From Candidatus Iainarchaeum sp. (GTDB lineage Archaea > Iainarchaeota > Iainarchaeia > Iainarchaeales > CSSED10-239), in contig JAQVTI010000001.1 of NCBI GenBank assembly GCA_028700115.1, positions 150,001 to 182,000 of the forward strand: a stretch of DNA of 32,000 nt, given 5' to 3'. The notes beneath the pieces were generated by a model, which did no database searches, was not told the DNA's origin, and worked only from the letters and a program-made list of their open reading frames with translations. The stretch's first letter is position 1. Each line of letters begins with the position of its first letter. Positions 2 to 27,579 of the stretch are shown piece by piece. Both the position numbers and the translations under genes were made by a program.

Positions 2-841
2 AAAAGAAAAAAAGTTGCTGCACAATATGGTTCTGGGTTTGATAAAGGAATAATTAAACTTTCAAAAGAAAATAAATTTAAATCAAAATCAGAATATCTA
101 AAAACTTTTTTAGAAAAGCAGAATCTTAATTTAGGATGTTTATATTCTTCTGGAAAAGACTCTAATCTTTCTTTAAATATTCTAAAAAAACAAAATTATA
201 AAATAAAATGTTTAATTTCTATTATTCCAGAAAACAAAGACTCATACATGTATCAAACTCCTGATTTAAAAATTTTAAAAGCACAATCAGAATGTATAGA
301 AATACCTTTAGTTTTAGGAAAAACAAAAGGTGAAAAAGAAAAAGAATTAATTGATCTTAAAAAAGTAATTAAAAAAGCAAAAGATAAATACAATCTGCAA
401 GGAATTGTCTCAGGTGCATTATTTAGTAACTACCAAAGAGAAAGAATTCAAAACATATGTAATGATTTAGGTTTAAGATTGTTTTCACCTCTATGGAATA
501 TAAACCAAGAAAAAGAAGTTTTGAAATTAATAAAAGAAAAATTTGATTTTAGAATTGTTAAAATTGCTGGATATGGACTAAATAAAGATTGGTTTTTAAG
601 AAAAATAGATTTAAAAGCTTTAGAAGAACTTAAAAAACTAAATAAGAAATATGGTTTCAATGTAGCAGGAGAAGGTGGAGAATTTGAAACTATTGTTTTA
701 GACTCACCTGATTTTAAAAAAAAAATAAAAGTTATAGACTACAAGATAAATTTAGAAAATGAATTTACTGGTGAAATTGAAATTAAAAAAATAAAAATAG
801 AAGAAAAAAGAAAAACTAATTCTAACAAGTACAACCAATAG
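2..841 (+). CDS. dph6: Diphthine-ammonia ligase / PP-loop ATP pyrophosphatase (Dph6, MJ0570 family); 5' end unresolved because the frame is open to the window edge
   Basis: The frame of the 248..841 ORF stays open back to base 2. It encodes the PP-loop motif LYSSGKDS at 140-163, upstream of the first ATG at 248. Downstream motifs GALFSNYQRERI and GEGGEFET fit the family. I see no in-frame ATG, GTG or TTG between 2 and 248, so the start is either left of the window or non-canonical. Confidence 0.7.
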   Translation, partial: KRKKVAAQYGSGFDKGIIKLSKENKFKSKSEYLKTFLEKQNLNLGCLYSSGKDSNLSLNILKKQNYKIKCLISIIPENKDSYMYQTPDLKILKAQSECIEIPLVLGKTKGEKEKELIDLKKVIKKAKDKYNLQGIVSGALFSNYQRERIQNICNDLGLRLFSPLWNINQEKEVLKLIKEKFDFRIVKIAGYGLNKDWFLRKIDLKALEELKKLNKKYGFNVAGEGGEFETIVLDSPDFKKKIKVIDYKINLENEFTGEIEIKKIKIEEKRKTNSNKYNQ

Positions 842-2096
842 CTGCACAACTTTTACCCCAAGCAGTTGCCATTGCTTGACAAAGTGCGACATTACCGTCT
901 GTAGATGACCTATAAAACATATCACTTGTATCAGTTGTAATCGAAACATTCCATGAAGATAAATTTCTATTCATTTTAGTTCTACCAAACATATAATACA
1001 TAGTAGATACATTTGAAACATCCCAATTAGATAAATCTTGGTTAAAATTACTTGCATATGCGAACATATTACGCATATTATTAATATTTGAAACATCCCA
1101 ATTATTCATATTAGAAACATAAGATACATTTGAACAATTTCTAAAAAAACCTTCTAAACTAGTAACCCCATTTAAATCTAAAATATCAGTTGCAGTTATA
1201 CTAGTTAAATTACTACAACCATAAAATGCATTTGTACTAAATTTTGGGTTAAACCCCCCCCAATGAGATATATTTGTAATTTTAGGATAATCTCCAGAAG
1301 CATTAAAAGACCAACCTTGAATAGTTCCAAACATATTTACATCATAAATTCCTGATGAAGAATAAGTATGTAATTTATCAGAATCATCATAAGAAGTTAT
1401 TTCTGAAGTAGTCCCATCTCCCCAATCTACTGTAAAATCATAATTACCTTCAGAAACTAAAGGTAAAGATATTTGATTAGCTTCACTAGATCCAGTAGAA
1501 GTTTTTGTAGTATCCCAAGTTGAAGAAAAATAAGGAATTATACAATCTTGACCACATGAAGAAATTGTTTCATCTCCATTACAAGTTCCATCTCCACAAT
1601 AAGGTGCATTATCACATGAAACAAGACTTGCTCCTAAATAACTTACAGGAATAGAAATATATTTACCATCATTAGTTTTTAATTCTAAAATAAATTCTTT
1701 TGAAGGAATACATATTATATCTAATTGATTACTTCTATTTGGATTAATAACTAAAGGAGTTTCTAAAGTATATTCTGTGTTTATAAAATTTGTATTTTCT
1801 GCGGTTGTAGAAATTAATTTATATGCAACAACATTTAAATCTTTATTAAAATTGTTATTTTCTAAAACAACTTTAGAATAATCCCCAGACATACTTTCAT
1901 AAACAGATCTGTATTTTATAAACCCATCTAAATCTGATTTATCATAAGTAACTACAGAAGATTCATCTAGATTAGATGTAGTAAAATCTTTTGAAAAAGA
2001 AACAATTCCTGCAATTAAAACAACTGAAACTAAAACAATTAAAACAGTTGCAATTAATGGAGAAATTGCTTTTTTATAAAAATCATTGCCAAACAT
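822..2096 (-). CDS. Secreted surface protein: archaeal class III (type IV pilin-like) signal peptide followed by DUF285/BspA-like repeats
   Basis: From the Met at 2096 the protein reads MFGNDFYKKA/ISPLIATVLIVLV: basic residues, an Ala cleavage site, then a hydrophobic helix, which is the prepilin-like signal. One CGDGTCNGDE..C..DC Cys module follows. The C-terminal half has tandem repeats with the signature W(D/N)VSN(I/V)xxMxxMF...FNQDL. The ORF-track start at 2180 would overlap the upstream KH gene and adds an implausible leader, so 2096 is preferred. Confidence 0.8.
   Translation of the reverse strand: MFGNDFYKKAISPLIATVLIVLVSVVLIAGIVSFSKDFTTSNLDESSVVTYDKSDLDGFIKYRSVYESMSGDYSKVVLENNNFNKDLNVVAYKLISTTAENTNFINTEYTLETPLVINPNRSNQLDIICIPSKEFILELKTNDGKYISIPVSYLGASLVSCDNAPYCGDGTCNGDETISSCGQDCIIPYFSSTWDTTKTSTGSSEANQISLPLVSEGNYDFTVDWGDGTTSEITSYDDSDKLHTYSSSGIYDVNMFGTIQGWSFNASGDYPKITNISHWGGFNPKFSTNAFYGCSNLTSITATDILDLNGVTSLEGFFRNCSNVSYVSNMNNWDVSNINNMRNMFAYASNFNQDLSNWDVSNVSTMYYMFGRTKMNRNLSSWNVSITTDTSDMFYRSSTDGNVALCQAMATAWGKSCAAIGCTC
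1576..2077. repeat. 502-bp segment about 99 % identical to 23863..24364 (shared 5' module of the two adhesin genes)
   Basis: Direct comparison at a constant offset of 22287 bp. I see only about 7 differences, clustered at 1906-1915 plus one near 1977. Identity stops abruptly at both ends. Confidence 0.9.
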
Positions 2097-2157
2097 ATAT
2101 AAACAATTATAAAAAATATTTAAAAACATATTTATTATTAAATAAAAATTAAAAAAA

Positions 2158-2730
2158 TTAATCAAAAGAAATATCATCAATTTTAACTTCTTGGGTCTTA
2201 ACTTTTTTATAACCTTCTGCTTTTAAAGATAAAGATTTTAACATTTTAAAAACAGTTGTATGTTTTACACCTTGTAATATTTTTTCAATAACATCTCTTA
2301 CTTCAGAAATATTATCTTGATAACCAATAATAGAAACTGTCTTTCCATAAACAGAAATAAAACAATGAAGCTTATCTTCAATCATTTTTTTAATATGACC
2401 ATCTTTTCCAATAACTCTTCCTCTTATTTGTTCATGTCTATTTCTTGTATTTTTTACAAAATCATCTAAATCAATTATTTCTAAAAGAAAATTATCTTCT
2501 AAAAGATTAAAAGAAACTTCTGGAGAAAACCCTCTTGAAATTGCAGTAAGTATATTTTTTGCGATATGTATTTCATAAAATGATTTTTTAGTTGAAATAA
2601 TTATTTCCCCAGTATGACTATTAATATTTAAATTAGTAGAAGTTTTTTTTTGAATATCTTTTTTAGTTTGACCATTTTCTCCAATAATTACAGCAAGTCT
2701 TTTTTTAGTAACTTTTATTTCATCTTCCAT
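2158..2730 (-). CDS. KH-domain RNA-binding protein, archaeal Dim2/Pno1-like
   Basis: Two KH-like modules are present (IIGENGQTKKDIQ and RVIGKDGHIKKMIE, GxxG type). It sits directly downstream of the Rio kinase, a conserved archaeal neighbourhood. The ATG at 2730 overlaps the Rio stop (ATGGAAGATGA). The track start at 2739 is a TTG. Confidence 0.8.
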   Translation of the reverse strand: MEDEIKVTKKRLAVIIGENGQTKKDIQKKTSTNLNINSHTGEIIISTKKSFYEIHIAKNILTAISRGFSPEVSFNLLEDNFLLEIIDLDDFVKNTRNRHEQIRGRVIGKDGHIKKMIEDKLHCFISVYGKTVSIIGYQDNISEVRDVIEKILQGVKHTTVFKMLKSLSLKAEGYKKVKTQEVKIDDISFD

Positions 2731-3448
2731 AAAGCTCAACTTTTTTCTTTTTTAAATCTTCTAAAAACATGTCATATGTAATTTCTATTTTTGGAAATTT
2801 TTTAGACAAAAAATCCACAATATTAATAATATCTCTTTTTAAAAAAAACTTAGATTTAGGATGGCTATAAGTTACAGATTGACCCATATCAATAATACTT
2901 ATTATTTGAGAAATAGGGTTAATTAAAATATTAAATGCAGAAAAATCTGCATGAACTATTTTAGCTCCATAAAGCAATTTTGCATAATTATCTATAAGTT
3001 GAGGATAAATTTTATCTAAATCAAAATCAATTTCATTAAGTCTTGGGAAAGATTTATCATTTATACCTAAAAAAGACATAATAATTATATTTTTTTCTCT
3101 AGCTATTACAACAGGACAACTAACATTATATTTTAAAGCAAGAGTTAAATTTTTAAATTCTTTAGAAGCCCAAACCATAAACATATCTCTTTTGTCAGTA
3201 GACATATTTCTAAATCTAAAATCTCCTTTAATATATTGATCCATATTTTTAAATTTAGAAGTTTCTATCTTATAAATTTTTGCAACTAAGGGAGTTTTTT
3301 CTAAATGTCCTAAAAAAGTAATTGCTTCTTTTCCACTAGATATAGGAGAATCAATTGAAGTAATAATATTATTAGAAGAAAGTTTAAATAAAGCTTTATG
3401 TGTAGATTCATCAAAAACATAATTCTCTATCTTAGTATTAATTTTCAT
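2720..3448 (-). CDS. rio1: RIO-type serine/threonine protein kinase (Rio1-like)
   Basis: Motifs SSGKEA (nucleotide loop), HADFSAFN (catalytic loop) and IDMGQSV (metal-binding loop). The ATG at 3448 is preferred over the TTG at 3457. Confidence 0.85.
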   Translation of the reverse strand: MKINTKIENYVFDESTHKALFKLSSNNIITSIDSPISSGKEAITFLGHLEKTPLVAKIYKIETSKFKNMDQYIKGDFRFRNMSTDKRDMFMVWASKEFKNLTLALKYNVSCPVVIAREKNIIIMSFLGINDKSFPRLNEIDFDLDKIYPQLIDNYAKLLYGAKIVHADFSAFNILINPISQIISIIDMGQSVTYSHPKSKFFLKRDIINIVDFLSKKFPKIEITYDMFLEDLKKKKVELYGR

Positions 3449-3479
3449 AAATATCAAAATTTATTTATATTAAAAATAA

Positions 3480-3839
3480 TTATTCTTTTTCATTTTTAGA
3501 ATAATTATTTGAAGAAACAACATCATGAGTAAATTTATATAAATTATTTAAAACACCTTTTCTTTCAAGTTGACCAACTTGAAAACCTAAAAATCTCCAA
3601 ATCACATCTCCTTTTATAGGTTGAAAATCCCAAAGTTTTACTATAACAACATCTCCTGGTTTTATCCAAATATGTTTAAACATTTTTCCAGGTATTCTAC
3701 AAACTCTTTCTATTCCATCTTCACAAAGAATAGAAATATTATTTACACCCATAAGTTGTACTACTTTTCCAAATAACTCTAAGTCTTCTTTTCTTGGCAA
3801 CCTAAGTCTTTTAAAATTTGGGGTTTGATCTAAGCTCAA
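3480..3839 (-). CDS. eif1a: Translation initiation factor aIF-1A
   Basis: S1/OB-type sequence GKVVQLMG..ILCEDGIERVCRIPGKM..IWIKPGDVVIVKLWDF...GDVIWRF. It starts at a TTG, with a GGAGTG Shine-Dalgarno about 8 nt upstream (3849-3855). Confidence 0.9.
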   Translation of the reverse strand: MSLDQTPNFKRLRLPRKEDLELFGKVVQLMGVNNISILCEDGIERVCRIPGKMFKHIWIKPGDVVIVKLWDFQPIKGDVIWRFLGFQVGQLERKGVLNNLYKFTHDVVSSNNYSKNEKE

Positions 3840-3857
3840 AAATTAATCACTCCTTTA

Positions 3858-4163
3858 TTAAATTTTATATATTTGCACATGTGGCACTTTATTTAAAAAA
3901 ATTACTTGATCTTTATTAATTAAATTATTATTTATAAAAAAACCACAAGATTTTTTCCCAAAACAATTTACAGAATCACAATCTTTAAAAAAATCTAAAA
4001 CTTCTTTTTCAGAAATAATTTTTTCTCCAAAAAAAGAAGAAGATATCATAATTTCAAAATTTTTTAAAATAATTTTTGTATTAACTAAATTTGAATCACA
4101 AACAGCTAAGATTTTATTTTTTGAAAAATTATGTAATTTACCAATCATAATATTTGTTTCCAT
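3858..4163 (-). CDS. DUF424 family protein
   Basis: The pattern ILAVCD...FFGEK...VPHVQIYKI matches the conserved archaeal DUF424 layout (CDEELLGK...FYGG...PHAQ). It lies next to aIF2-beta, as in many archaea. Confidence 0.65.
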   Translation of the reverse strand: METNIMIGKLHNFSKNKILAVCDSNLVNTKIILKNFEIMISSSFFGEKIISEKEVLDFFKDCDSVNCFGKKSCGFFINNNLINKDQVIFLNKVPHVQIYKI

Positions 4164-4196
4164 TTTAAATTTTAAATAATAAACTTTTTAAAAAAA

Positions 4197-4622
4197 TTAT
4201 AATTTTGGTAAAGGATTAATTGCACCACAAACACTACATTTTAAAACCTTTACACCATTTTGAGTTACAATATCTGTATCTGGTTTTTTACAAGCAAGAC
4301 ATATCACAAAATTTTTTAAATATTTCTCAAAGATTTGATTTAATTTATAATTATTAAAAACACCATTTAAAATTAAAGTACCATTTTGAATACTTGAAGA
4401 TGTAGAAATCTCTTTCATAATAAATTTATATATTTGAGATTCATCTCTTTTAATAGTTTTTGCAACTTTTGAAAAATTTTTCCAAATAGTTTGTTTACCC
4501 ATAACCATTGATTCAACTGTTGGAAGTATAAATCTAGAATCATCTAATGCTTTATTAGGAAGAGACATATAAATCCTATCTAATAAATCTTTATAATTTA
4601 ATTCATTTTTAGTATCGTTCAT
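4197..4622 (-). CDS. eif2b: Translation initiation factor aIF-2 beta subunit
   Basis: YKDLLDRIY...RFILP core and a C-terminal zinc ribbon, C..C(KKPDT)...CSVCG. Confidence 0.9.
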   Translation of the reverse strand: MNDTKNELNYKDLLDRIYMSLPNKALDDSRFILPTVESMVMGKQTIWKNFSKVAKTIKRDESQIYKFIMKEISTSSSIQNGTLILNGVFNNYKLNQIFEKYLKNFVICLACKKPDTDIVTQNGVKVLKCSVCGAINPLPKL

Positions 4623-4724
4623 AAATATAATATATGATAAGAAGTATTTATAAAACTAAAGTAAAAAGAAAAAAAAGAAAATAAATCAAGAAAAATTAAA
4701 AAAATAAAAATAAACAAAATAAAA

Positions 4725-5576
4725 CTATAAAAGAAATATTAAAATATAAATAATTACAAAAAGCATAAATAAAGTTTGAAGGGGAAGAGCAGGAAGTGCT
4801 TTTATTTTTTTAGACTTAGAAAGAATTACAAAAGTTAAAACCAATCCTAAAATAGAAGCAAGCCAAATAAACATAATAGGAAATATTGTTTGAATAAAGG
4901 TATATTTACCAATTAATATATAAAAAAAAGATACAGAAGTTAATAATGGAATAACAATATCTCCCCCTCCAAGTTGATATACTTTTCTTTTAGTAGGAAT
5001 AGAAAATGTAAAAGCTAATTTTTTTTTAATAACCATATTTGCTAAAACCACCATATGCTTTGTATAAAAAACAGCAATAATATCATAAATAGATAATAAA
5101 ATTATAAAAACGATTACAGGAATAACACCTAAAGATAAACCAATAATAGACCCTGCTCCTGCAATAGATATAGCTAATAAAAAATTATTATACCACATTA
5201 AAAGTTTTATATTTTTTTTAAATTTTAAAAAATTTCTAAAAACTAATAAAAACAAACTAATTAACAAAGCAAAATAATAAGATAAAAAAACATCAAAAAC
5301 AACTACACAACCAACAAATAAAGCCATAATTTCAAAAAAATTAAGATAATTTTGTTTTTTAAAAAATCTTTTTAAAAAAATCATAAGAAAAGTAAATATT
5401 AAAATTTCAATTAAAATACCAAAAGCATTAATTACATTATTAGGATCTTCTGTAAATACACCTCTAACAGCATCTTGATTTAAATAATAATTTGCAGAAA
5501 TTAACCCAATTATTTGTATAAATACAAAAATTAAAATAAAAATTATAAAAAAATTAAAATCTAATTTTTTAGTCAT
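4725..5576 (-). CDS. Presenilin / signal-peptide-peptidase-like intramembrane aspartyl protease (A22 family homologue)
   Basis: Polytopic membrane protein. It has the three diagnostic motifs in order: YD (LSIYDIIAVF), GxGD (LGGGDIVIPLL) and PAL (ALPALP). Confidence 0.75.
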   Translation of the reverse strand: MTKKLDFNFFIIFILIFVFIQIIGLISANYYLNQDAVRGVFTEDPNNVINAFGILIEILIFTFLMIFLKRFFKKQNYLNFFEIMALFVGCVVVFDVFLSYYFALLISLFLLVFRNFLKFKKNIKLLMWYNNFLLAISIAGAGSIIGLSLGVIPVIVFIILLSIYDIIAVFYTKHMVVLANMVIKKKLAFTFSIPTKRKVYQLGGGDIVIPLLTSVSFFYILIGKYTFIQTIFPIMFIWLASILGLVLTFVILSKSKKIKALPALPLQTLFMLFVIIYILIFLL

Positions 5577-5653
5577 AAATAATCTTTTTTTAAAATTTTA
5601 TTTTAAAAATATATATTTTATAATGTTATTAAAAATAATAAATATCTTTAAAA

Positions 5654-6031
5654 TTATTTAGAAAATTCTTTTTTAAAAGGTTTTTTATATGAAAAATCTT
5701 TAAAAATATTATAATCATTAGAAATCTTTTTAAACAAAAGACTATAAAGACCTTTTTGTTTATAATAACTTGAAATTACAACTTCTTTTTTAAAAAACTT
5801 ATTAGAAGAAACTTTACCAATTATAAAACCTATTGCATTTGTATTTTGTTTTGCAATATAAATCACATAATTTTTATTTAAAACTAAATCTTCTAAATCT
5901 TTTTTAACTTTTGGAATACTTTTTGTAATATCTATTCCTGGAAATTTAATTTTTAAAAAATCAGAAATATATGAATCTTTTAAAAAAATAATATTTTTAG
6001 AATAAATTTTAGAATAAATTATATTGTTCAT
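5654..6031 (-). CDS. Hypothetical protein (weak GNAT-like pattern)
   Basis: Intact 125-aa ORF in a tight gene array. AIGFIIGK...VVISSYYKQKGLYSLLFKKI only loosely resembles the acetyl-CoA-binding strand-helix of GNAT enzymes. Confidence 0.4.
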   Translation of the reverse strand: MNNIIYSKIYSKNIIFLKDSYISDFLKIKFPGIDITKSIPKVKKDLEDLVLNKNYVIYIAKQNTNAIGFIIGKVSSNKFFKKEVVISSYYKQKGLYSLLFKKISNDYNIFKDFSYKKPFKKEFSK

Positions 6032-6054
6032 ATTAATATATACTTTACAAAATA

Positions 6055-8199
6055 TTAAAAACTATCCTGTTCAATAGGTTTTAATAAACCTATTTTTGGT
6101 TCATAAACATCTCCAATTTTTTTAAGTTTAGAAATTGCTTCTAAAACCTTATCTCTATTATGTCCTTCTTTTTCAGCAAAATCTAAAACTTCCTTTGTAG
6201 GAATTGGATTTCCATTTTCACAAAGATCTTTTATATATCTTAAAACAGTTTTTACAAGATTTCTTTCAGATTGAGATTGACCTGTTGCTAAAATATCAAT
6301 ATCTATTTTTCCAGTTTCAACATCTAAAGCAGTTTGTTCTAAAGAAGTTTTAAAAATTCTAATTGCTCTTTGAGCATCATCTGGGTCAATTATTTTTTTT
6401 AATTTTATTTTTGCACTAGCTTCAGATAATCTAATTAATCCTTCTAACTGTCTTGGAGTTGCTGCAAAACTTTTTTGTTTTCGCCCAAGATCTCTTAAAC
6501 TAATATAATAATCTAAAATAATTTTTGAAGCTTCAGCAGAAAGAATAGGTTTTATGTTCTGTCTTGAATAAGCAACATATTTTTTATAAAGTAAAGGATC
6601 TATTTCTGGAAGAATATTTCTATTTGCTTCATCATATTCTTCTTTATCTATAGAATTATCATTTGTTGAAAGTTTTTGTGCAAAAGTTTGTGTATTTAAA
6701 ATATGCTTTGCAATACTTATATCTTGATCTCTTTTTAAATTATCAGGAATAACAAAATATAAATCAAATCTTGAAATTAAAGAAAAAGGAAGATCTATTT
6801 GTTCAATTGGATTTTTAAAAGGATCAAATCTATTATATTTAGGATTTGCAGCAGCAAGAATAGAACAATCTGCTTTAAATTTACTATATAATCCAGCTTT
6901 TGAAACAGAAACAGTAGATTGAGCCATTGCTTCATGAAGAGAACTTTTATCTTCAGGACTTATTTTATCAAATTCATCAATTAATGCAATCCCACCACTT
7001 GCTAAAATAACAGCACCAGCCTTTAAAGTCCAACCACCTTCTCCAAATTCATCTTTTACTGCTGAAACTGTAAGCCCTGCTCCTGAAACTGTTTTTCCTG
7101 CAACATAAACAGATTTTGGTGCTAAAATATTTGTATATTCTAAAAGTTTAGATTTTCCTGTAGATGGATCACCAACTAAAAGAATATGAATATTCCCTCT
7201 TAATTTTTGTTTAGCTGCTTCTTTTTTAACACCACCAAACATTTGAAGAGTAATTGCTTCTTTTACAACTTCATGACCCCAAATATTAGGGGCAATAGAT
7301 CTTGCTAAAACATCATAAATATCATTTTTTTTAGAAAGTTCTAAAATTTGTGTTTCTTCTTCAGGATCAATGGTTAATTCATCATATTCTTGATCTATTT
7401 TTTCAATATGATTTGCAACAATATATTTCCCATAAATATTCATATCTCCTTTTGGAGGTCTTAATTTTAAAACACCAGTAACTAAAATTTTATCTCCTGC
7501 AGAACATTTATTAACAAGATCTTGAGAAAGATAAACATCTATATTACTTGCTTGATCAGAACCTTTTAAACTTTCTAAAGGCTCTTGCATTTGAATTTTT
7601 TGATAATCTATAAAAGCAGATTGCTCTAAATCAATATCAAATTCTCTAGACTTACACTCCCTACATAAAACAGGTTTTGAAAGCTGTTGGGATTTTTGTT
7701 CGATATCAATTGCAGTACCACATTTTCTACAAACAAAATGAGCTGTAGTTAATTTTTCTAATCTTTCAGTAATTAATCTAATTGTTCCTTCTGCAGAAAT
7801 TAATTTTGTTAAATGATCAGAACCAATATCTCTTATTGAAACCCTATATTCTTTTGGAAGATTATAAAATCTAATAATAGGTTCAAACTTTTCTTCAATT
7901 TCAGAATCTAAAATTCCAATATCTATTTTTTTAATTGCAGCATTTGCTGCTTCAATTATAATTTGAGGATTATCTATTAATCTTTCAGAAATATTTAAAT
8001 CAAATTCTTCTAATTTTTTATAATCTATATCAAGACTTATTTTTTTAGGATAATTAGAAGCAAGAAACTCAATTTCTCTTTTATATATATCATCAAAAAA
8101 TTCTTGCAAAATATCTATATAACTATCAATTGCTAAATCTTTTGGCTTTCCAGTATTTGTATCTTCAAGAGAATCAAATTCTTTATCTAAATCAATCAT
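6055..8199 (-). CDS. mcm: MCM replicative helicase
   Basis: Zinc motif CRKCG...CRECKS, Walker A GDPSTGKSKLL, Walker B IDEFDK, arginine finger SRFDL, and a C-terminal wHTH-like tail. No intein. Confidence 0.95.
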   Translation of the reverse strand: MIDLDKEFDSLEDTNTGKPKDLAIDSYIDILQEFFDDIYKREIEFLASNYPKKISLDIDYKKLEEFDLNISERLIDNPQIIIEAANAAIKKIDIGILDSEIEEKFEPIIRFYNLPKEYRVSIRDIGSDHLTKLISAEGTIRLITERLEKLTTAHFVCRKCGTAIDIEQKSQQLSKPVLCRECKSREFDIDLEQSAFIDYQKIQMQEPLESLKGSDQASNIDVYLSQDLVNKCSAGDKILVTGVLKLRPPKGDMNIYGKYIVANHIEKIDQEYDELTIDPEEETQILELSKKNDIYDVLARSIAPNIWGHEVVKEAITLQMFGGVKKEAAKQKLRGNIHILLVGDPSTGKSKLLEYTNILAPKSVYVAGKTVSGAGLTVSAVKDEFGEGGWTLKAGAVILASGGIALIDEFDKISPEDKSSLHEAMAQSTVSVSKAGLYSKFKADCSILAAANPKYNRFDPFKNPIEQIDLPFSLISRFDLYFVIPDNLKRDQDISIAKHILNTQTFAQKLSTNDNSIDKEEYDEANRNILPEIDPLLYKKYVAYSRQNIKPILSAEASKIILDYYISLRDLGRKQKSFAATPRQLEGLIRLSEASAKIKLKKIIDPDDAQRAIRIFKTSLEQTALDVETGKIDIDILATGQSQSERNLVKTVLRYIKDLCENGNPIPTKEVLDFAEKEGHNRDKVLEAISKLKKIGDVYEPKIGLLKPIEQDSF

Positions 8200-8345
8200 T
8201 TATAAAAACCTCAAAAATATTATATATAAAATATTTATAAACATAAATAAAGGGTATGTGACCAAAACCTAAATTTACAAAAAATATAAATATATAAATT
8301 TTATTAAAATTTTCTATATATTACAAATTTTAAAAAAATCCTTAA

Positions 8346-8373
8346 AAAAACCTATTTTTAAAAATAGGTTTTT
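8346..8373. repeat. Perfect 28-bp palindrome AAAAACCTATTTTTAAAAATAGGTTTTT, a terminator or operator candidate
   Basis: Read directly. It lies in the 325-bp spacer between the 8525..8854 gene and the MCM start. On the minus strand it is followed by a T-run. Confidence 0.6.
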
Positions 8374-8524
8374 ATTAAAGAAAGTTTTATAGTTGTATAA
8401 AAATAAATATTACAAATCTTATATATTATTATTTAGTTTGGAAAAAATAAAAAAAAACATATAAAATAAGGAAATAATACAAGAAGTATAGAGGTAAAAT
8501 AAAAAAAAATAAAAAAAATACAAA

Positions 8525-8854
8525 TTAATTTACATAATAATTATATAAATAATTTGCAGCACCTTGACAACTTGCTTGACAAGCTTGCATATTATAATTA
8601 CAACTAGATACTGATGATCCACTATCTATACATATTTCAAAATTATCCTTACAACCATTAATACACCAATTATAAAAAGCACTATTATATGGAGATTCTT
8701 CATCTAAAGAAAATGGATTTGCAATAGATATAGGTTGTGAAATAATATTGTTTGCAGAACCAGATATTGTTAAATCATTTATTAAAAAACCAACAATTAT
8801 TCCAATAACTAAAGCAATAATTACTAAAAGACTTAACTTTAAATTATTTTTCAT
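8525..8854 (-). CDS. Small membrane-anchored or secreted cysteine-rich protein
   Basis: N-terminal hydrophobic helix LSLLVIIALVIGIIVGFLI, and a C-terminal part with 8 Cys. The ATG at 8854 is preceded by GAGGTG (8863-8868). The track start at 8866 is a GTG inside that Shine-Dalgarno. Confidence 0.5.
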   Translation of the reverse strand: MKNNLKLSLLVIIALVIGIIVGFLINDLTISGSANNIISQPISIANPFSLDEESPYNSAFYNWCINGCKDNFEICIDSGSSVSSCNYNMQACQASCQGAANYLYNYYVN

Positions 8855-8945
8855 AAAACTAAACACCTCATAAACAAATATTTTAAAATATTTAATAATA
8901 TATATTATAAAAGATAATGTTTATAAAACAAATTAATATATAAAA

Positions 8946-10277
8946 CTAAACAAAATCAATAGAATTTGCAAGTAATTCTATTTCTGAAGAAAAACCATTA
9001 AGTTTAGCTCTTCCTTTAATTTTTATTCTTTTACCTAAAAGATCATCTTCAAGCTTAGAAAAAATATTTTCTTTTTCTTCTTCAGAAAATTCTTTTATAA
9101 AATCTTCTTTTTTAATATTAAATATTTTTTCAACAACTTCTTTAAAGAAAACAACCTTTAAAATACCAGTACCATCATCTACATCAATAGATGCAAAAAG
9201 ATTAACTTCAGGATTATCAACTTCTTTATTACATTTTTCACAAATAAATGATTCATTTATTAATTGTATTTTTTCTTTACAATCAGGACATTTAAAATAT
9301 CTTAATTTATTTCTATTTACAGAAACAATAGTAGCTTCAATTTCATAATTTTTAGAATCTTCTAAAGAAGAAATTGTTGAATTTTCATAACTTTGAGAAA
9401 AAGCATCTATTAATTGCTCTAAAGAAGGAATATTTAAATTATTTTTTGGATTTTTAAAAATTGTAGAATTCCAATTAATATTTATTTCAAAATCATATAA
9501 ACCTTCTCTTACATTTACATCTGTTAATTTTACAATATCTCCTCTTTTATAATCTTTTTCAAAAGTATGTGCTAATTGATCCCAAGCAGTACACTTTATA
9601 GACTTTATTCCATCAGAAATTTCAAAATTTAAAACAAATCTTTTTTTTTGATTTTTATCTTCAAATTCTCTAATAGGATAAATAGCTATAATTCTTCCAA
9701 TAGTTTCAATTAATTTATCAGTTAAATCAATTTCAGAAACTTTTATAAAAATATTTTCAATAGGTTTAATATCAGGAGCATTTTCTGGAAGAATAATGCT
9801 TCCTCCATATCTTAAAGCAAGTTCTTTATTATCATTATAAGTTGTAACATATGCATCTTTTATTAAAACTAAAGAATTTTTTTCTAAATTTAAAGAATCT
9901 ATTAAATCTACTTTTTCATTAAAAAGATTTAATTTAATTTCACCAGTATCATCTTGTAAAAAAACATTTTGAATTTTCCCAAGAGAACCATCCTTTGCAT
10001 TATATGTTTTAAAAGGTGGGATAGATTTTACTCTAGCATATAAACTAACCCCATCTTGAGAAGAAGAAATTTCTGAAATTTTATATATAGAAGAAGTAGA
10101 TTTTATATCTAAATCTACATTATATTGCTTTGCAAGCATTATATTTGCACCAACATCAGAAAGTAGACCTTGATATTTATCTTTTATTTTATTTATTTCT
10201 TCTAAAAGCTCTTCATCAGTTTTCTTAGTTTCAACTTTTATTTTTTTAAAAATATCTTCAGCATTATTTAATTGCAT
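8946..10277 (-). CDS. Replication protein A-like ssDNA-binding protein (multiple OB folds plus zinc ribbon)
   Basis: Repeated OB-fold-like segments and the zinc ribbon CPDCKEK...CEKCNKE, typical of archaeal RPA/RFA large subunits. Located near MCM. Confidence 0.75.
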   Translation of the reverse strand: MQLNNAEDIFKKIKVETKKTDEELLEEINKIKDKYQGLLSDVGANIMLAKQYNVDLDIKSTSSIYKISEISSSQDGVSLYARVKSIPPFKTYNAKDGSLGKIQNVFLQDDTGEIKLNLFNEKVDLIDSLNLEKNSLVLIKDAYVTTYNDNKELALRYGGSIILPENAPDIKPIENIFIKVSEIDLTDKLIETIGRIIAIYPIREFEDKNQKKRFVLNFEISDGIKSIKCTAWDQLAHTFEKDYKRGDIVKLTDVNVREGLYDFEININWNSTIFKNPKNNLNIPSLEQLIDAFSQSYENSTISSLEDSKNYEIEATIVSVNRNKLRYFKCPDCKEKIQLINESFICEKCNKEVDNPEVNLFASIDVDDGTGILKVVFFKEVVEKIFNIKKEDFIKEFSEEEKENIFSKLEDDLLGKRIKIKGRAKLNGFSSEIELLANSIDFV

Positions 10278-10507
10278 AATTTAAAACCATTTTTATTTTT
10301 TTAATTTTTTATAAAAATTTTAAAAAAATTATAATATAAATATATATTAATAAAGAAAATATTAATAAAAGGGTAAGAATATAAAATAATACAAAAAATA
10401 AAACCAATTTAAAAATATTAAAATAAATATAATTATAAATATATTAGACTAAATATATTAAATAAAATATATTTTAGAAAATAAAAATTTATAAAAAGTG
10501 TAAAAAA

Positions 10508-12817
10508 ATGAAGATAGGAAAATATACTGTTGGAAACTACATAGTTACTCAAGAAGGAAATAAAAAAAAATTAGTTTTTGACTGTAGAAACTGTCCATAT
10601 AATACATCAATTGCAGAAGATGCAAGATGTAGATACCATGTTTTAAAAACATTAGAAACAATAGATGCAGATGAAATAATATTAGCAGAAGTATATGAAA
10701 GAAGCTATGATAAAATACAAACAAAATTTTTAAAAGAAATGGTAAATCTTGGGATGGATTTTGAAAATAAAGCTGTTTGGGTTTCAGAACATTTAAATAT
10801 TAATGATATTGATTGCGATCAATGTTACCCACAAAGACATAATAATATTTTAAAATTTGCAAGAGAACTAATCTCATATGACCCAATAGCATCATATATA
10901 ACTTTATTAAAAGAAATAGAAAACAATAAAACAAGAGAAGAAGACTCAAAAGGAAAAGAATGCGAAAAATGCTTTACTGCAAATATAAATCATTTATTAA
11001 ATTTAAAAAAACAATATGAAAAAACTGAGTTTATTAGAAGAATCAAACCAATTTTAGTAAAAAGCAAAGATCTTTCTGACTTAACAGATATTTATAGAAC
11101 CATTTTTGAAGTAGAAATAAAACCATCTTTTATTGGATCTAAAATATCTTTTGAAAATATGGATAAATTAGAACTAATAGACGAATACCAAGTATTAAAC
11201 ACAAATGTACAAATATTTAAACATCCAGAAAAAATAGAATATATGTATATGATTAACCCCCCAGAGTACACACTTTCTCCAGACCATTATTTTGTACTTA
11301 CAAAAACAAAAGAAACTGTTGCAAACTATGCTCCTGGAACAGTTACTCTTACAACAGGGGATTCAACTAGAAAATACTTTCAAAGAATATATCAAAGCAC
11401 AATAACAGATATTGCACGAAAATTTGCAATAAACATAAATGCAGAAGACATTTTTGCACTTTCTGAAATAGTTACAAGATATACAATTGGATATGGAATT
11501 TTAGAATTACTACTTTCAGACAGACAAGTAACAGATGTTTATCTAGACTCACCACTTGGTTCAAAACCAATCTATTTAGTTCACTCTAAATATGGACAAT
11601 GCCAAACAAACATACAATACCCAGAAAGCGATGCTGAAAGCTTTATTGGAAAAATTAGAGCAATGTCTGGAAGACCATTTGATGATGCACATCCAATTTT
11701 AGACTTTGATTTACCAGATCTTAACACAAGAATTGCAATTATTGGAAGACCTCTTGCAACTGATGGGATTGCATTTGCATTCAGACTTCATAAAGACACT
11801 CCTTGGACTCTACCACAGTTAATAAATGTAAAATCACTTAACTCACTTGCAGCAGGTATGCTTTCATTTTTTATAGATAATAATTCAACTATGCTAATTG
11901 CAGGATCACGTGGTGCAGGAAAAACTTCTTTAATGACTTCTTTAATGCTTGAGATTCTACAAAACAGTAGAATCATAGTTCAAGAAGACACATTAGAACT
12001 TCCTGTAATGTACATGAAAGATATTGGGTTTAATGCCCAAAGACTAAAAACAAGATCTGCAATTGGTGGAACAGGAGATCTAGCAACATCTGAAGTTAAA
12101 CCAGAAGATGCTCTAAGAACAGCTTTAAGACTTGGTGACTCTGCTTTAATTGTTGGGGAAGTTAGAAGTGTTGAGGCTAAAGTTTTATATGAAGCCATGA
12201 GAATTGGTGCAGCTGGAAATGTTGTTATGGGAACAATACATGCTGATTCAGCTTATGCAGTTTGGGATAGAGTTGTAAATGATCTAGAAGTTCCAACAAC
12301 TTCTTTTAAGGCAACTGATATTGTAGTTGTTGCAAAGCCTATAAGATTTAAAGGATCTTTAAAAAACCATAGAAGAGTAGTTCAAATCACAGAAGTTAGA
12401 AAGCATTGGAATAATGATCCAGATGCAGAAGGCGGACTTTTAAACTTAATGGAATATGATGCTTCAAAAGATACACTTGTTTTAAATGAAGATGCTCTAA
12501 AAGACTCTGAGATGTTTACAAAGATAAGTAAACTTTCTGGTATGAAGATAGAAGAGATTTGGGAGAACATTAACTTAAGGTCAAAAGAGAAACAGTTCCA
12601 AGTAGATTTTGCAAAAGAAAAAGATGTGATTGAAATTTTAGAGGCAGAACACACTGTTTTTGCACACAACAAGCTTCTTATCATGAAAGAAGAATATTTG
12701 GAGTATTATAATGATAAGCTAGATTATAATGATTTATACGAAAAATGGAAAAAATGGTATACAGAAAGCTTTGCTCCAAGAGTAATTAAAAGAATAAAAG
12801 ATAATAGAATTGAATAA
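10508..12817 (+). CDS. Type II/IV secretion / type IV pilus family ATPase (PilB/ArlI-like) with a long Cys-containing N-terminal extension
   Basis: Walker A AGSRGAGKTS, Walker B-like ALIVGEVRSVEA, His box GTIHADSA. About 430 N-terminal residues contain CRNCP...CRYH, CDQC and CEKC pairs. Confidence 0.85.
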   Translation: MKIGKYTVGNYIVTQEGNKKKLVFDCRNCPYNTSIAEDARCRYHVLKTLETIDADEIILAEVYERSYDKIQTKFLKEMVNLGMDFENKAVWVSEHLNINDIDCDQCYPQRHNNILKFARELISYDPIASYITLLKEIENNKTREEDSKGKECEKCFTANINHLLNLKKQYEKTEFIRRIKPILVKSKDLSDLTDIYRTIFEVEIKPSFIGSKISFENMDKLELIDEYQVLNTNVQIFKHPEKIEYMYMINPPEYTLSPDHYFVLTKTKETVANYAPGTVTLTTGDSTRKYFQRIYQSTITDIARKFAININAEDIFALSEIVTRYTIGYGILELLLSDRQVTDVYLDSPLGSKPIYLVHSKYGQCQTNIQYPESDAESFIGKIRAMSGRPFDDAHPILDFDLPDLNTRIAIIGRPLATDGIAFAFRLHKDTPWTLPQLINVKSLNSLAAGMLSFFIDNNSTMLIAGSRGAGKTSLMTSLMLEILQNSRIIVQEDTLELPVMYMKDIGFNAQRLKTRSAIGGTGDLATSEVKPEDALRTALRLGDSALIVGEVRSVEAKVLYEAMRIGAAGNVVMGTIHADSAYAVWDRVVNDLEVPTTSFKATDIVVVAKPIRFKGSLKNHRRVVQITEVRKHWNNDPDAEGGLLNLMEYDASKDTLVLNEDALKDSEMFTKISKLSGMKIEEIWENINLRSKEKQFQVDFAKEKDVIEILEAEHTVFAHNKLLIMKEEYLEYYNDKLDYNDLYEKWKKWYTESFAPRVIKRIKDNRIE

Positions 12818-13174: not shown

Positions 13175-13801
13175 ATGAAATTATTTAATAGAGTTAGAAA
13201 ACCTAAAAGAGAGACACCTCATAAGATAATAGAAAAAACATATAAAATAAATGAACTTGAAGCAGCTTTTACAAAAGAGAAAGGCAAAAACTCAAAATTA
13301 AAAGAAATAAATGCAGTTAGAAGAAAAGATTCAGGTAAATTTGTTTTAGGAGATATTAAAGATAAATTTTACCACACACATATTCTAGATAGTCTAAAAG
13401 AAAGAAATAAATTAATACCTAGTCCAGAAGACATAGTTACATCTAGTTTACTTAAAAGATATAAGAATGTAAAAAACAATGGTGTTTTTCTAATACACAA
13501 AGGTAAAGAAATTGGAAAAATACATTTTAGATTAAGTGATAAATTTATTAAAGATATTAGAGAAGGAACAGAGAGAGCAAGTAAGACTAATAAAGATATT
13601 AATAAGGTTGATTTTTTTAATGCATTTCTAAAACTAAGAATAAGTAATATTTATTCTTTTAATATTTTAAAAGATAAAATGACTTTAGAAAAACAAGTTA
13701 AGATAATTAATGAACTTAAAAAAGAAGGTATACAAATAAAATATAAAGCAATGCCTGGATATAAGTTTAATGAAAAAACTATGCTTTTTGAAAAAGCATA
13801 A
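13175..13801 (+). CDS. Hypothetical lysine-rich protein (208 aa)
   Basis: Intact ORF with an ATG start. I recognise no motif. Confidence 0.5.
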   Translation: MKLFNRVRKPKRETPHKIIEKTYKINELEAAFTKEKGKNSKLKEINAVRRKDSGKFVLGDIKDKFYHTHILDSLKERNKLIPSPEDIVTSSLLKRYKNVKNNGVFLIHKGKEIGKIHFRLSDKFIKDIREGTERASKTNKDINKVDFFNAFLKLRISNIYSFNILKDKMTLEKQVKIINELKKEGIQIKYKAMPGYKFNEKTMLFEKA

Positions 13802-13825
13802 AACTAATTTTATTTTTATAAAAAA
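13773..13825. repeat. About 53-bp direct repeat, copy 1: the last 8 codons plus the 3' flank of the 208-aa gene
   Basis: AAAAAACTATGCTTTTTGAAAAAGCATAAAACTAATTTTATTTTTATAAAAAA recurs at 15282..15335. It is identical apart from A-run lengths. Confidence 0.9.
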
Positions 13826-15281: not shown

Positions 15282-15335
15282 AAAAAACTATGCTTTTTGA
15301 AAAAGCATAAAACTAATTTTATTTTTATAAAAAAA
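15282..15335. repeat. About 53-bp direct repeat, copy 2 (orphan 3' end of the 208-aa gene)
   Basis: See 13773..13825. This copy has no gene body upstream of it. It is preceded directly by the promoter-like motif. Confidence 0.9.
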
Positions 15336-15911
15336 TCATACATTAATATAGTCTTTATGAATATACTCTTTTACAAATAATAAAACATCTTTATTTGTAA
15401 ATTGATTTATACTCTTTTTATGATCTTCAAAAAACAGTTCATAACAATATCTAAGATATGAAGGATTAAGAGTTTTTACTTGGTTAAAAAATTTAACTTT
15501 TAACTCTTTAGAAATATCTAATTCTTTTATTTTTTTATCTAATTTATATTTTAAGATATTTCCTTGTCTATCAGATCTATTAACATAGATTTCTGCTTCA
15601 CGTTTTTCTATTTGTGCATATTTTAAAAAATGTTCAACAATTTTTATATATTCTTTTTGAGTTAGTTTTTTCATTAACTCTTTTGTAGTCATGTTTTTTT
15701 TATCTCTTAAAAGAATATTATGCATATGAAAAACAATATCAGAATCTGATAAAAATTTATCTTTTTGTTTAATTAGTTCTCTTAGTTTAGGGTCTACTAC
15801 TTTTTGATTTAGTTTCTTTGTAGACCTATTTCTAGTTATTTTAAAACTTTGTCTTTTTTCCTTAAATGTATAAGGTTTATTTGTTTTTGGATTTATTTTT
15901 CTAAAAGGCAT
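15336..15911 (-). CDS. Hypothetical lysine-rich protein (191 aa)
   Basis: Intact ORF with an ATG start, lying between AbiEii-1 and ATPase 1. No recognisable motif. Confidence 0.5.
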   Translation of the reverse strand: MPFRKINPKTNKPYTFKEKRQSFKITRNRSTKKLNQKVVDPKLRELIKQKDKFLSDSDIVFHMHNILLRDKKNMTTKELMKKLTQKEYIKIVEHFLKYAQIEKREAEIYVNRSDRQGNILKYKLDKKIKELDISKELKVKFFNQVKTLNPSYLRYCYELFFEDHKKSINQFTNKDVLLFVKEYIHKDYINV

Positions 15912-16013
15912 AAATAATTAACTCTTTTATATTATAACAAATATATAAAAGATAAATAAATTTATAAATAGTAATTTTTATTAAAAAAATAAATTTTTTT
16001 AAAGAAAATTCAT

Positions 16014-16736: not shown

Positions 16737-16740
16737 TAAT

Positions 16741-20290: not shown

Positions 20291-20294
20291 ATAT

Positions 20295-21506: not shown

Positions 21507-24386
21507 CTATCTCCTTCCACCACTAACTGCATCTTCTATTGTCCAATTAAAATTATTTATAATATAGTCTTTTGCAGTAAGTCCATCTCCAGAAGGAGTA
21601 CTATTTCCTGCATCAAAAGATACATTTGATTGTAAAGGCAATTTACTCCAACTAATTAATAAAGAATTATAATTTGAAGAAGATAAAGAAGTAATTGAAA
21701 ACATATTTCCCATATCTGTTACATTAGAAACATTCCAAGAAGCTAAATTTTGATCGAAAACCTCATTATTACAAAACATATAATACATATTATTTACATT
21801 TGAAACATCCCAATTATTTAAAGGTTGATTAAATGAACTTGCACCATTAAACATATCACTCATATCAGTTACATTTGAAACATCCCAATTATTTAAAGGT
21901 TGATTAAAAGCACGCACCCTACAAAATACACCACTCATATCTGTTATTGAAGATGTATTCCAATCATTTATATAACTATTAAAATCAGTATTATTTGTAA
22001 ACATACCTTTTATTGAAGTTATATTAGATAAATCCCAATAATTAATATTAGGTATACCAGTCAAATATCCTCCACAACCTTCAAACATATATTCTAAAGA
22101 AGTTGTTCTATTTAATTTTAAAATATCTTCAGCTGTAACACTTAAATTAGAACAACCTCTAAATTGTGAATCTGTAACTCCAAGATCAAGATTACCCCAT
22201 TTTGAAATATCACTAATTTTTAATCTATCTCCAGAATCATTAAAAGACCAACCTTCTAATTCTCCAAAAATATTTAAATCATACACTCCATAAGAATCAT
22301 AAGTATGAGGTAAATCCGAATCATCCCAAGAAGTTATTTGTGAAGTTGTTCCATCATCCCATTCTACAGTGAAATCATAATTACCATCAGAAACTAAAGG
22401 TAACATAATTTGATTATATTCACTAGATCCAGTAGAAGTTTTTGTAGTATCCCAAGTTGAAATAAAATAATTACTTTCACAATCTGTTGGACAACTATCT
22501 GAATTTTCTGAAGAATATGAACAAATACCATCTCCACAACTTCCACAATCTGCATAACAAGAACTTACAGTTTCATAAACAGTACAGAAACCATCTCCAC
22601 AAACACTACAATCTTGAGGACATGTATCTAAATTTTCATCAGAAGAAGTACAAATTCCATCTCCACAACTACCACAATCTATATAACAAGTATCTATATT
22701 TTCATCCCCATTACAAGATTCATCTCCACATTCAGGAGGACCTGGAACAATACCTAAATCTTCTAGATACCAACCTAAATCATTTACTAAATAATTATAA
22801 GCATCATCTGCTTCTGCAGTATGATATAGATTAATATTACTAACACCAACACCTAAAGCAATATTAGGATTATCAGCCCAATCAATTAATGTATTTGAAT
22901 AATTTTCTACAGACATAGATGTAGGTATATTATAATCAACATCAGATAAAAAACCATATAAACAATCCATATTTGCTAAATTCCAATCGCCTATATCTTG
23001 ATCAAAACTAGATCCTTCAAATAAAGCTACAGCAGCATATAAATTTGAAACATCCCAACTTGAAATATCTTGATTAAAATCTGAAAAAAAGAAAGTATAT
23101 CTCACCTTTTCAACATTTGAAACATCCCAAGAAGAAATATCTTGATTAAAAGGAACTTTTCTAACAGAAGAAAAATCAACAAGTTCAGATAACCATTCAG
23201 GATATTCAAATAACAAACTAATCTGTGTTTTTCCAAATGTATTTGATAAATCTAAAATATTAGAAGTATCCCAATTTTCTATATTTGGAATATCTACTAA
23301 AGAAAAACAATCTGCAAATGAAGCGGTTAAATAAGTTGTATTTTCTAAAATATCTAAACTATCTTCAGCAGTAATTGTTAAATTTTCACAACCAGTAAAA
23401 TGCCCATATGAATTTGAATCAATAGAATCTAATTTTAATGGTCCCCAATTAGATATATTTAATATTTTTAATCTATCTTTACTTAAATGAACATTATCAT
23501 AAATACAAAAATCCAAACCATTTATTTCTTCAAAATTATAATCAGCAAAAGACCAGCCTTCTATTGTTCCATTAATATTTATTTCGTATTCTCCAGATAA
23601 AGAATAAGTATGTAATTTATCAGAATCATCATATGAAGTTATTTCTGAAGTAGTCCCATCTCCCCAATCTACAGTAAAATCATAATTACCATTTGGAACT
23701 AATGGAAGCTCTATTTGGTCATCATCACTTGAATAACCATATTCTATTAAACTTTCCATTTCAAAATCCATATAGTAATTTATAGATGTATTATTTGTAT
23801 CCCATGTAGAAGTAAAATAATTAATATGACAATCATCATAACAAGTTTCTTCAGTTTCAGAACCATTACAAGTTCCATCTCCACAATAAGGTGCATTATC
23901 ACATGAAACAAGACTTGCTCCTAAATAACTTACAGGAATAGAAATATATTTACCATCATTAGTTTTTAATTCTAAAATAAATTCTTTTGAAGGAATACAT
24001 ATTATATCTAATTGATTACTTCTATTTGGATTAATAACTAAAGGAGTTTCTAAAGTATATTCTGTGTTTATAAAATTTGTATTTTCTGCGGTTGTAGAAA
24101 TTAATTTATATGCAACAACATTTAAATCTTTATTAAAATTGTTATTTTCTAAAACAACTTTAGAATAATCCCCAGACATACTTTCATAAACACTTAAACA
24201 TTTTATAAACCCATCTAAATCTGATTTATCATAAGTAACTACAGAAGATTCATCTAGATTAGATATAGTAAAATCTTTTGAAAAAGAAACAATTCCTGCA
24301 ATTAAAACAACTGAAACTAAAACAATTAAAACAGTTGCAATTAATGGAGAAATTGCTTTTTTATTAAAAATATATTTTGAATTCAT
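21507..24386 (-). CDS. Large surface adhesin-like protein: class III signal peptide, shared N-module, two DUF285/BspA-like repeat domains joined by tandem Cys-rich modules
   Basis: N-terminus MNSKYIFNKKA/ISPLIATVLIVLV. There are two blocks of WDVSN(V)xxMxxMF..FNQ(D/P)(I/L) repeats. Each block is preceded by a TWDT...NYDFTV(D/E)WGDGTTS segment. Confidence 0.85.
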   Translation of the reverse strand: MNSKYIFNKKAISPLIATVLIVLVSVVLIAGIVSFSKDFTISNLDESSVVTYDKSDLDGFIKCLSVYESMSGDYSKVVLENNNFNKDLNVVAYKLISTTAENTNFINTEYTLETPLVINPNRSNQLDIICIPSKEFILELKTNDGKYISIPVSYLGASLVSCDNAPYCGDGTCNGSETEETCYDDCHINYFTSTWDTNNTSINYYMDFEMESLIEYGYSSDDDQIELPLVPNGNYDFTVDWGDGTTSEITSYDDSDKLHTYSLSGEYEININGTIEGWSFADYNFEEINGLDFCIYDNVHLSKDRLKILNISNWGPLKLDSIDSNSYGHFTGCENLTITAEDSLDILENTTYLTASFADCFSLVDIPNIENWDTSNILDLSNTFGKTQISLLFEYPEWLSELVDFSSVRKVPFNQDISSWDVSNVEKVRYTFFFSDFNQDISSWDVSNLYAAVALFEGSSFDQDIGDWNLANMDCLYGFLSDVDYNIPTSMSVENYSNTLIDWADNPNIALGVGVSNINLYHTAEADDAYNYLVNDLGWYLEDLGIVPGPPECGDESCNGDENIDTCYIDCGSCGDGICTSSDENLDTCPQDCSVCGDGFCTVYETVSSCYADCGSCGDGICSYSSENSDSCPTDCESNYFISTWDTTKTSTGSSEYNQIMLPLVSDGNYDFTVEWDDGTTSQITSWDDSDLPHTYDSYGVYDLNIFGELEGWSFNDSGDRLKISDISKWGNLDLGVTDSQFRGCSNLSVTAEDILKLNRTTSLEYMFEGCGGYLTGIPNINYWDLSNITSIKGMFTNNTDFNSYINDWNTSSITDMSGVFCRVRAFNQPLNNWDVSNVTDMSDMFNGASSFNQPLNNWDVSNVNNMYYMFCNNEVFDQNLASWNVSNVTDMGNMFSITSLSSSNYNSLLISWSKLPLQSNVSFDAGNSTPSGDGLTAKDYIINNFNWTIEDAVSGGRR
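22480..22733 (-). repeat. Five tandem Cys-rich modules CGD(G/E)xCxxxExxxxCxxDC within the adhesin
   Basis: The translation reads ECGDESCNGDENIDTCYIDC GSCGDGICTSSDENLDTCPQDC SVCGDGFCTVYETVSSCYADC GSCGDGICSYSSENSDSCPTDC. The periodic DNA also produces the spurious + strand ORF at 22487..22834. Confidence 0.8.
23863..24364. repeat. 502-bp segment about 99 % identical to 1576..2077
   Basis: See 1576..2077. Confidence 0.9.
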
Positions 24387-27572: not shown

Positions 27573-27579
27573 GATAAAT

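Follow-up and report, generated by a model that had tools for sequence, protein, structure and literature searches.

The question raised by this locus is how two surface-protein genes of one archaeon came to share a pilin module that is almost the same in its DNA, when the regions beside it have diverged. The genes, here called S (small) and L (large), are direct repeats 22 kb apart in a 32,000-nucleotide stretch (the window; 23% G+C, archaeal) from a DPANN (Iainarchaeota-type) archaeon that carries the source label 'Candidatus ainarchaeum sp.' and is known only from metagenome bins. We think it likely that S received its present pilin module in a recent non-crossover gene conversion, with L as the most likely donor.

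S and L begin alike, with a class III signal motif (KK/AISPLIATVLIVLVSVVL), about 125 further residues and a Cys-rich linker of the form CGDGxC...C..DC, beyond which lie an FnIII/PKD-like WGDG domain and then DUF285/PARCEL repeats. In S the class III signal belongs to a pilin module, which a single Cys-rich linker joins to the FnIII/PKD-like domain and the DUF285/PARCEL repeats, and a Cys-rich tail forms the C-terminus. L has the same pilin module and linker, followed by a first head, L1 (~22736-23822), four Cys-rich repeats (~22479-22730) and a second head, L2 (21507-22472). Both proteins score above the gathering cut-off of 25 for PF03382 (82.9 bits for S and 214.6 bits for L), and their heads also match NCBIfam PARCEL repeat models; for TIGR02167, with a cut-off of 30, L scores 36 bits and S 28 bits. 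The two records of L are titled 'BspA family leucine-rich repeat surface protein [Candidatus ainarchaeum sp.]', one of them (MDD3975714.1) lying on a 193-kb contig that is probably the source of this window, and an exact look-up of the 424-residue S protein and of the neighbouring diphthamide synthase open reading frame (ORF) returned no record. Their domain families suggest that S and L are adhesins. Since residues 1-593 of L are collinear end to end, at 60% identity, with a complete stand-alone relative of 581 residues (P0002), L looks like a fusion, i.e., a P0002-type gene with Cys-rich repeats and an added second head of the S/P0001 type.

The evidence for conversion lies foremost in a tract of 502 nucleotides, block A (Table 1), in which the copies of S and L, both on the minus strand and at an offset of 22,287, are identical at 495 positions (98.6%). 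Identity drops to ~50% within a few bases beyond either edge. An earlier note on this DNA, written from the sequence alone, had reported about 99% identity and abrupt ends for the same tract, and both observations hold. It had also placed the tract after the signal-peptide region, which is not so: block A begins at the KK of the class III motif (KK/AISPLIAT), takes in the hydrophobic helix and ends in the first Cys motif (...PYCGDGTCNG). The mismatches fall at 1906, 1907, 1909-1912 and 1978 and cause the amino-acid changes T40I, Y62C and R63L, plus a Ser TCT/AGT switch. Counted from KKAISP, the same codon is used at 161 of 163 amino-acid-identical degenerate codons, and the two that differ are the Ser codon in the 1906-1912 cluster and a Gly codon (GGA/GGT) just beyond the 3' edge, with its mismatch at 1575. 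Given a background codon identity of 0.73 in the diverged parts of S and L, the probability of such agreement is ~5e-23. A search for further copies of the module, as the earlier note had proposed, found only these two within the window. Rfam and tRNA scans of the window gave no match, and the conservation at the DNA level thus has some cause other than an embedded RNA gene.

The mismatch cluster deserves mention in its own right. The codons there are TAC AGA TCT (YRS) in S and TGT TTA AGT (CLS) in L, and the cluster sequences are TACAGATCT versus TGTTTAAGT, of which the S version is palindromic over 10 bp (ACAGATCTGT). The cluster may stem from a micro-conversion whose donor copy is unseen, from a complex mutation or from a patch that escaped conversion.

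What does block A encode? On the predicted structure it is one complete archaeal type IV pilin module, running from the class III motif through the N-terminal helix and a β-sandwich to the first Cys motif. The starts of S (MFGNDFYKK/AISPLIATVLIVLVSVVLIAGIV) and L (MNSKYIFNKK/AISPL...) each have the short charged N-terminus, [KR][GA] peptidase motif and ~20-residue hydrophobic helix of a class III signal. The two proteins score 16.4 and 16.3 bits with TIGR02537, for which the cut-off is 20, and neither matches PF07790 (Pilin_N), which the family relative P0173 matches with 25.3 bits (cut-off 25.2). An AlphaFold model of S, computed from an 18-sequence alignment, has a mean pLDDT of 79.6 (~62-87 in the module). 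The best match of this predicted model to the PDB by Foldseek was 8fk7_A, the archaeal type IV pilus of Pyrobaculum calidifontis (E = 1.2e-5, probability 1.00, TM-score on target 0.54), and next came 8q30, 6nav and 6w8x, and also 8tib, entries that include Sulfolobus AAP and the pilins of S. islandicus and S. solfataricus. The pilin-like character that the earlier note had ascribed to the shared module is thus borne out by the predicted fold. A profile of the module found 292 clusters among 1.84 billion representatives, with the module N-terminal in all, and the cargo in sampled proteins was DUF285, RCC1, PT-HINT, GLUG, Flg_new or no known domain.

Relatives of the same architecture show how unusual the likeness of the two modules is. 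P0002 is of the L1 type, P0021 has an S-type C-terminal tail, and P0001 and P0003 have heads of the S/L2 type. Among these relatives, and between them and S or L, the pilin modules are 45-66% identical in protein (55-66% where S or L is set against any one relative), versus 98% for S and L. Because the modules of relatives are far more diverged, the near-identity of S and L points to a recent, lineage-specific transfer. The heads group otherwise, L1 with P0002 (61%) and S with L2 and P0001 (60%), and identity matrices together with the collinearity of L and P0002 show that module and head are phylogenetically incongruent. A control for selection was available in sample ERZ18242344, where the paralogues P0002, P0021 and P0124 and a 754-residue neighbour lie on contigs of 17.6-20.5x that probably belong to one genome. 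DNA identity among their modules is just 65-79%, and the first ~55 residues of P0021 and P0124 are almost identical in protein and only ~79% identical in DNA, which is the pattern of selection without conversion. Peaks of DNA conservation in the family coincide with the ends of block A (KKAISPLIAT, 93-97%, at the 5' end and CDNAPYCGDG, 87-97%, at the 3' end), as fits a homology-dependent exchange where the earlier copies were still alike.

The mechanism that we propose is as follows. S and L would be paralogous surface proteins in which a pilin module carries a DUF285/BspA-type head on a Cys-rich stalk, and a recent non-crossover homologous recombination, most likely from L to S, would have replaced the pilin module of S by that of L, with the KKAISPLIAT and CDNAPYCGDG stretches supplying the homology to start and resolve the exchange. 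MCM, RPA, eIF genes and the RIO kinase lie between the two genes, and presumably only conversion products survive because a crossover between the direct repeats would delete essential genes. The transfer appears to have been non-reciprocal, and the direction from L to S is weakly favoured by comparison with relatives. On either side of block A, L matches P0002 (92% DNA identity at the 5' end and 90-100% in the linker) and S has no such match, and the shared module is 66% identical to that of the L-type P0002 vs 55-61% to those of S-type relatives.

Block A we treat as certain, and the exchange did not necessarily stop there. Block C in the FnIII/PKD-like domain of S agrees with L1 at 88 of 90 positions and with L2 at 72 of 90. 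The near-identity that the earlier note gave for 1376-1448 holds (71/73), although its counterpart starts at 23618 and not, as stated there, at 23617. Block B, for which that note had claimed the greatest similarity to the start of the second domain over 1440-1535, is indeed closest to L2 (76/87, or 87%, with a 43-nucleotide exact core, vs 64-67% to L1) and is not near-identical. A 15-codon insert of L1 is absent from S and from L2. When aligned by codon with L1 and L2, the S head falls into three zones, an L2-like start, an L1-like stretch at 1359-1448 and a mostly L2-like remainder (60-90%); informative sites are L2-like at 22 of 25, then L1-like at 19 of 21, then mixed and mostly L2-like, and a maximum chi-square permutation of these sites gave p <= 0.001. 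A second, shorter exchange, between S and L1, is the probable origin of block C. The similarity of block B may be a matter of descent only. Overall, the S head and L2 share 60% amino-acid and 73-87% DNA identity, and the S head is an anciently diverged paralogue of L2 whose likeness is better read as older common descent than as recent transfer. The description of S as a mosaic of L segments is therefore right as to the patchwork of identity and wrong as to its construction, since S was not built from pieces of L.

Homogenisation of this kind recurs in a second lineage. Two independent metagenomes, JGI Ga0265294_10071050 (L029) and ENA ERZ27250894 (L030), hold a tandem array of at least three module genes in which the module end of the upstream gene is identical to that of the middle gene at 126 of 126 nucleotides, with divergence from the module boundary on. 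The middle and downstream genes are ~90-95% identical in their upstream region and 5' module and then diverge. Both contigs begin inside the repeat. A scan of metagenome contigs with the module alignment returned a single locus (L029), a scan of viral contigs gave no match, and a scan of genome contigs that used the S protein as query matched nothing closer than distant DUF285 proteins from bacteria and Asgard archaea, with this species and its close relatives not among the matches. A word-indexed protein search with a 185-residue module query returned only the partial protein P0121, and for both queries it missed the 959-residue L, which is in the collection and 98% identical over 167 residues; absence from the lists of that search is thus not evidence of absence.

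Table 1. Features of S, L and the ATPase gene between them (nucleotide positions are those of the window; residue positions are those of the S protein)
Feature	Position	Strand	Basis or remark
Small gene S, 424 aa	822..2096	-	ORF; PF03382; ATG at 2096 is the PGAP start of partial protein P0121
Large gene L, 959 aa	21507..24386	-	PF03382 in 3 stretches; on record as MDD3178189.1, MDD3975714.1
Block A in S, pilin module from KK of signal motif to ...CGDGTCNG	1576..2077	-	495/502 identical to L copy; codon test
Block A in L, probable donor copy	23863..24364	-	L matches P0002 on both sides, S does not
Mismatch cluster, 6/7 bases differ	1906..1912 (L: 24193-24199)	-	Family's most variable dipeptide; in both assemblies
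Block C, L1-like tract in FnIII/PKD-like domain of S	1359..1448	-	Counterpart 23601-23690 in L
Block B, start of S head, closest to L2 start	1449..1535	-	Counterpart 22386-22472
T2SSE/FlaI-type secretion ATPase, 769 aa	10508..12817	+	PF00437 54.5 bits; between S and L
S model: helix	residues 13-39		AlphaFold
S model: seven-stranded β-sandwich	residues 60-152		AlphaFold
S model: low-confidence linker	residues 163-185		AlphaFold
S model: second β-domain	residues 189-262		AlphaFold
S model: repeat solenoid	residues 273-400		AlphaFold

An alternative mechanism is that S is a new chimera, in which ~500 bp of L were pasted by illegitimate recombination before a pre-existing head gene (a partial duplication or domain swap). 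The edges of block A are abrupt and lie exactly at domain boundaries, the family is modular, with one pilin module on many cargos (DUF285, RCC1, PT-HINT, GLUG, Flg_new), and L itself resembles a fusion of a P0002-type gene and a second head. We nevertheless consider this origin unlikely. The S-type relatives P0001, P0003 and P0021 already have the architecture with their own diverged pilin modules, which implies that S had a module of its own to be overwritten. Moreover, both tract ends lie in islands of homology, as homologous exchange predicts, and S retains its own start codon, N-terminal residues and linker.

Another possibility is programmed variation, in which frequent cassette exchange between S and L would serve to change antigenicity or host range. 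Known systems of this kind are Neisseria pilE/pilS, Mycoplasma MgPa and Borrelia vlsE, where a single expression site receives variable-region sequence from silent cassettes and heterogeneous populations are found. S and L are like these systems in that pilin or adhesin genes swap segments by non-reciprocal recombination. They are surface-exposed paralogues with at least two tracts from different donor segments, they belong to a DPANN archaeon that is likely to depend on cell contact, and homogenised modules recur in another lineage. However, S and L are both complete, each with a start codon and signal peptide, the window holds no silent or promoterless cassettes, and the long tract is the conserved stalk and not the variable head. 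Evidence on strain variation comes from a second, independent assembly (GCA_028691725.1), in which contig 14 (L028, JAQUYT010000014.1) agrees with window 1779-12096 at every one of the 10,318 bases compared and contig 12 (L001) shows no differences from window 20241-29536. The assemblies are thus identical in the whole of L and in S at 1779-2096, yet strongly different in the S-layer gene. No population heterogeneity at S or L was found in a comparison of two assembled sequences, which has low power. The relative genome with four paralogues likewise shows no recent exchange. Taken together, these observations make programmed variation quite improbable. A diversity-generating retroelement was also considered and rejected, since the ORFs scanned in the window include no reverse transcriptase domain and the differences, a C/T change and the mixed seven-base cluster, are not adenine-specific. 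The earlier note had proposed ongoing gene conversion or cassette shuffling of surface proteins. A recent non-reciprocal conversion of the 502-nucleotide block stands, but, with complete genes and with assemblies that agree over the comparable parts of S and L, neither 'ongoing' nor 'cassettes' is supported, and its suggestion of antigenic or host-range variation finds no support in a copied part that is the conserved stalk and in assemblies that agree even at the seven differing bases.

It is also conceivable that the identity of the two modules is an artefact, i.e., a repeat-induced chimera or a consensus collapse in a metagenome contig. The repeat does break short-read assemblies, as the end of contig 14 at 1779 in block A attests, and the exact S protein is not on record elsewhere. 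The seven fixed differences between the copies recur in the second assembly, however, for S (the S-specific bases are in contig 14) and for L (contig 12 holds the complete gene with the L-specific bases), which, for S over 1779-2096, speaks against the assembly collapse that the earlier note had named as a refutation. An independent contig of 13,993 bp confirms that the L module is joined to the L1 head, and since there are two copies only, the join in S follows by elimination. S is moreover an intact ORF with the architecture of its relatives, and the same phenomenon is seen in two unrelated metagenomes, so that an artefact is very unlikely. Finally, purifying selection alone might be invoked because the protein sequence of the N-terminal helix changes very little throughout the family, but it is effectively refuted by the identity of synonymous sites (161/163 codons), by the protein-identical N-termini of a relative that are only ~79% identical in DNA, and by module cores of relatives that are 45-66% identical in protein.

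Several points weigh against a recent conversion from L to S. The direction is drawn from weak parsimony, and where the copies differ it is S that has the commoner state in relatives (Ser codon TCT, Thr40), from which we conclude that the seven differing bases probably arose in L after the transfer. A third copy of the module elsewhere in the genome may have been the donor, as copies were counted in the window only. Blocks B and C are short, and a synonymous-codon test supports each at only P = 0.007, weaker than the informative-site result; relatives of both lineages have similar amino acids in block C. In addition, contig 14 ends inside block A, so that the second assembly confirms S only over 1779-2096.

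If gene conversion did overwrite the module of S, both proteins would present a near-identical stalk to the same peptidase, assembly machinery and filament, and their heads would stay different. The net effect is homogenisation (concerted evolution) of the stalk and not diversification of the head. The window encodes a RIO kinase, a KH/Dim2-type protein, diphthamide synthase, an S-layer protein, MCM, RPA, RtcB and a T2SSE-type ATPase, and S itself lies between the diphthamide synthase and the KH/RIO genes. The ATPase, which lies between S and L, is a candidate pilus assembly motor that may be tied to them. No prepilin peptidase gene was found in the window, and no PilC/FlaJ-type gene was recognised there. 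In relatives (L031 2871-8035 and L033 6783-9598) a pilin of 157-174 residues, likely the major pilin, lies directly upstream of large pilin-module proteins, one of which has 908 residues and many CGDGxC repeats. This window contains no small pilin of that kind.

The comparison of assemblies yielded further observations on the neighbourhood. Wherever contig 12 differs from the window, the site is in the S-layer gene or adjoins it (window 17735-20290, variable core ~18168-19940; contig 12 9247-11745), and this gene is the real strain-variable surface locus here. The first ~100 and last ~145 residues of its two alleles are identical and the central ~600 only ~35-40% identical, so that it looks like allele replacement. 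A segment of ~160 bp at window 15907-16065, between a 191-residue ORF and a second AbiEii gene (16014-16757; partner 16741-17529), is absent from contig 12. A 290-bp direct repeat (280/290) at 24478-24767 and 26540-26829 brackets a 2.06-kb unit with an AbiEii toxin/putative AbiEi antitoxin pair (24843-26482). It consists of the 3' end of an MJ0538-family gene, which is present in full at 26557-27210 and as a truncated 102-residue copy at 24495-24803, and the bracketed unit looks like an inserted cassette with duplication of the target 3' end, in the same arrangement in contig 12. A 53-nucleotide exact direct repeat with a hairpin (13773-13825 and 15282-15334) brackets an AAA_14/DUF4143 ATPase gene (13816-15159), which may be an inserted cassette or a present/absent polymorphism. 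Contig 12 has its start within the second copy of this repeat, at 15315, and contig 14, to judge by its length, would likewise end nearby.

The nearest archaeal parallel to S and L are the adhesion pilins PilA1-6 of Haloferax volcanii, which have a completely conserved H-domain (PMC6491452). In S and L, known from sequence alone, the identical part is instead the whole pilin domain, ~167 codons with the β-sandwich and identical in DNA, and what diverges is a large DUF285 head borne by a Cys-rich stalk. The sugar-binding proteins of the Sulfolobus 'bindosome' have a class III signal and helix only, with the functional domain displayed at the surface. S and L resemble them in displaying a functional domain at the archaeal surface by means of a pilin-type N-terminus, but according to the predicted fold a full pilin β-sandwich precedes the cargo. 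Classical members of the DUF285/PARCEL/BspA family (PF03382; PARCEL repeats, PMC2996958) are mollicute or Listeria lipoproteins and secreted proteins. Unlike these, S and L have an archaeal pilin module as their anchor. Gene conversion between archaeal paralogues has been documented, for example for duplicated mtrA in methanogens (PMC4632066) and in Haloferax (PMC11276520). As in these cases, non-reciprocal exchange keeps parts of S and L near-identical and is shown by identity tracts and tree incongruence; unlike them, S and L encode DPANN surface proteins and the tract is exactly one structural module. Full-text literature searches returned no paper in which DPANN surface proteins are linked to gene conversion, nor any that deals with DUF285 in such a setting.

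No new mechanism is implied by our findings, as concerted evolution of paralogous surface-protein genes is well known, and the more exciting reading, programmed variation, is without support here. They do provide a clear case of gene conversion, with sharply defined ends, from a DPANN archaeon that has not been cultivated, as well as the practical warning that the repeat breaks short-read assemblies of genes of the S/L type. A small family of pilin-module proteins with exchangeable heads includes reasonable candidates for cell-cell attachment. With ~290 module clusters bearing heads that range from DUF285 to RCC1, HINT and GLUG, we put forward tentatively, as possible but doubtful, the idea that the module is a standard 'socket' of DPANN surface proteins that recurrent conversion anchored on the two ultra-conserved end motifs keeps identical among the paralogues within a genome. 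If that is the case, one pilus could carry different heads, which could be exchanged and still remain compatible with assembly, and the family would amount to a modular display system for host attachment.

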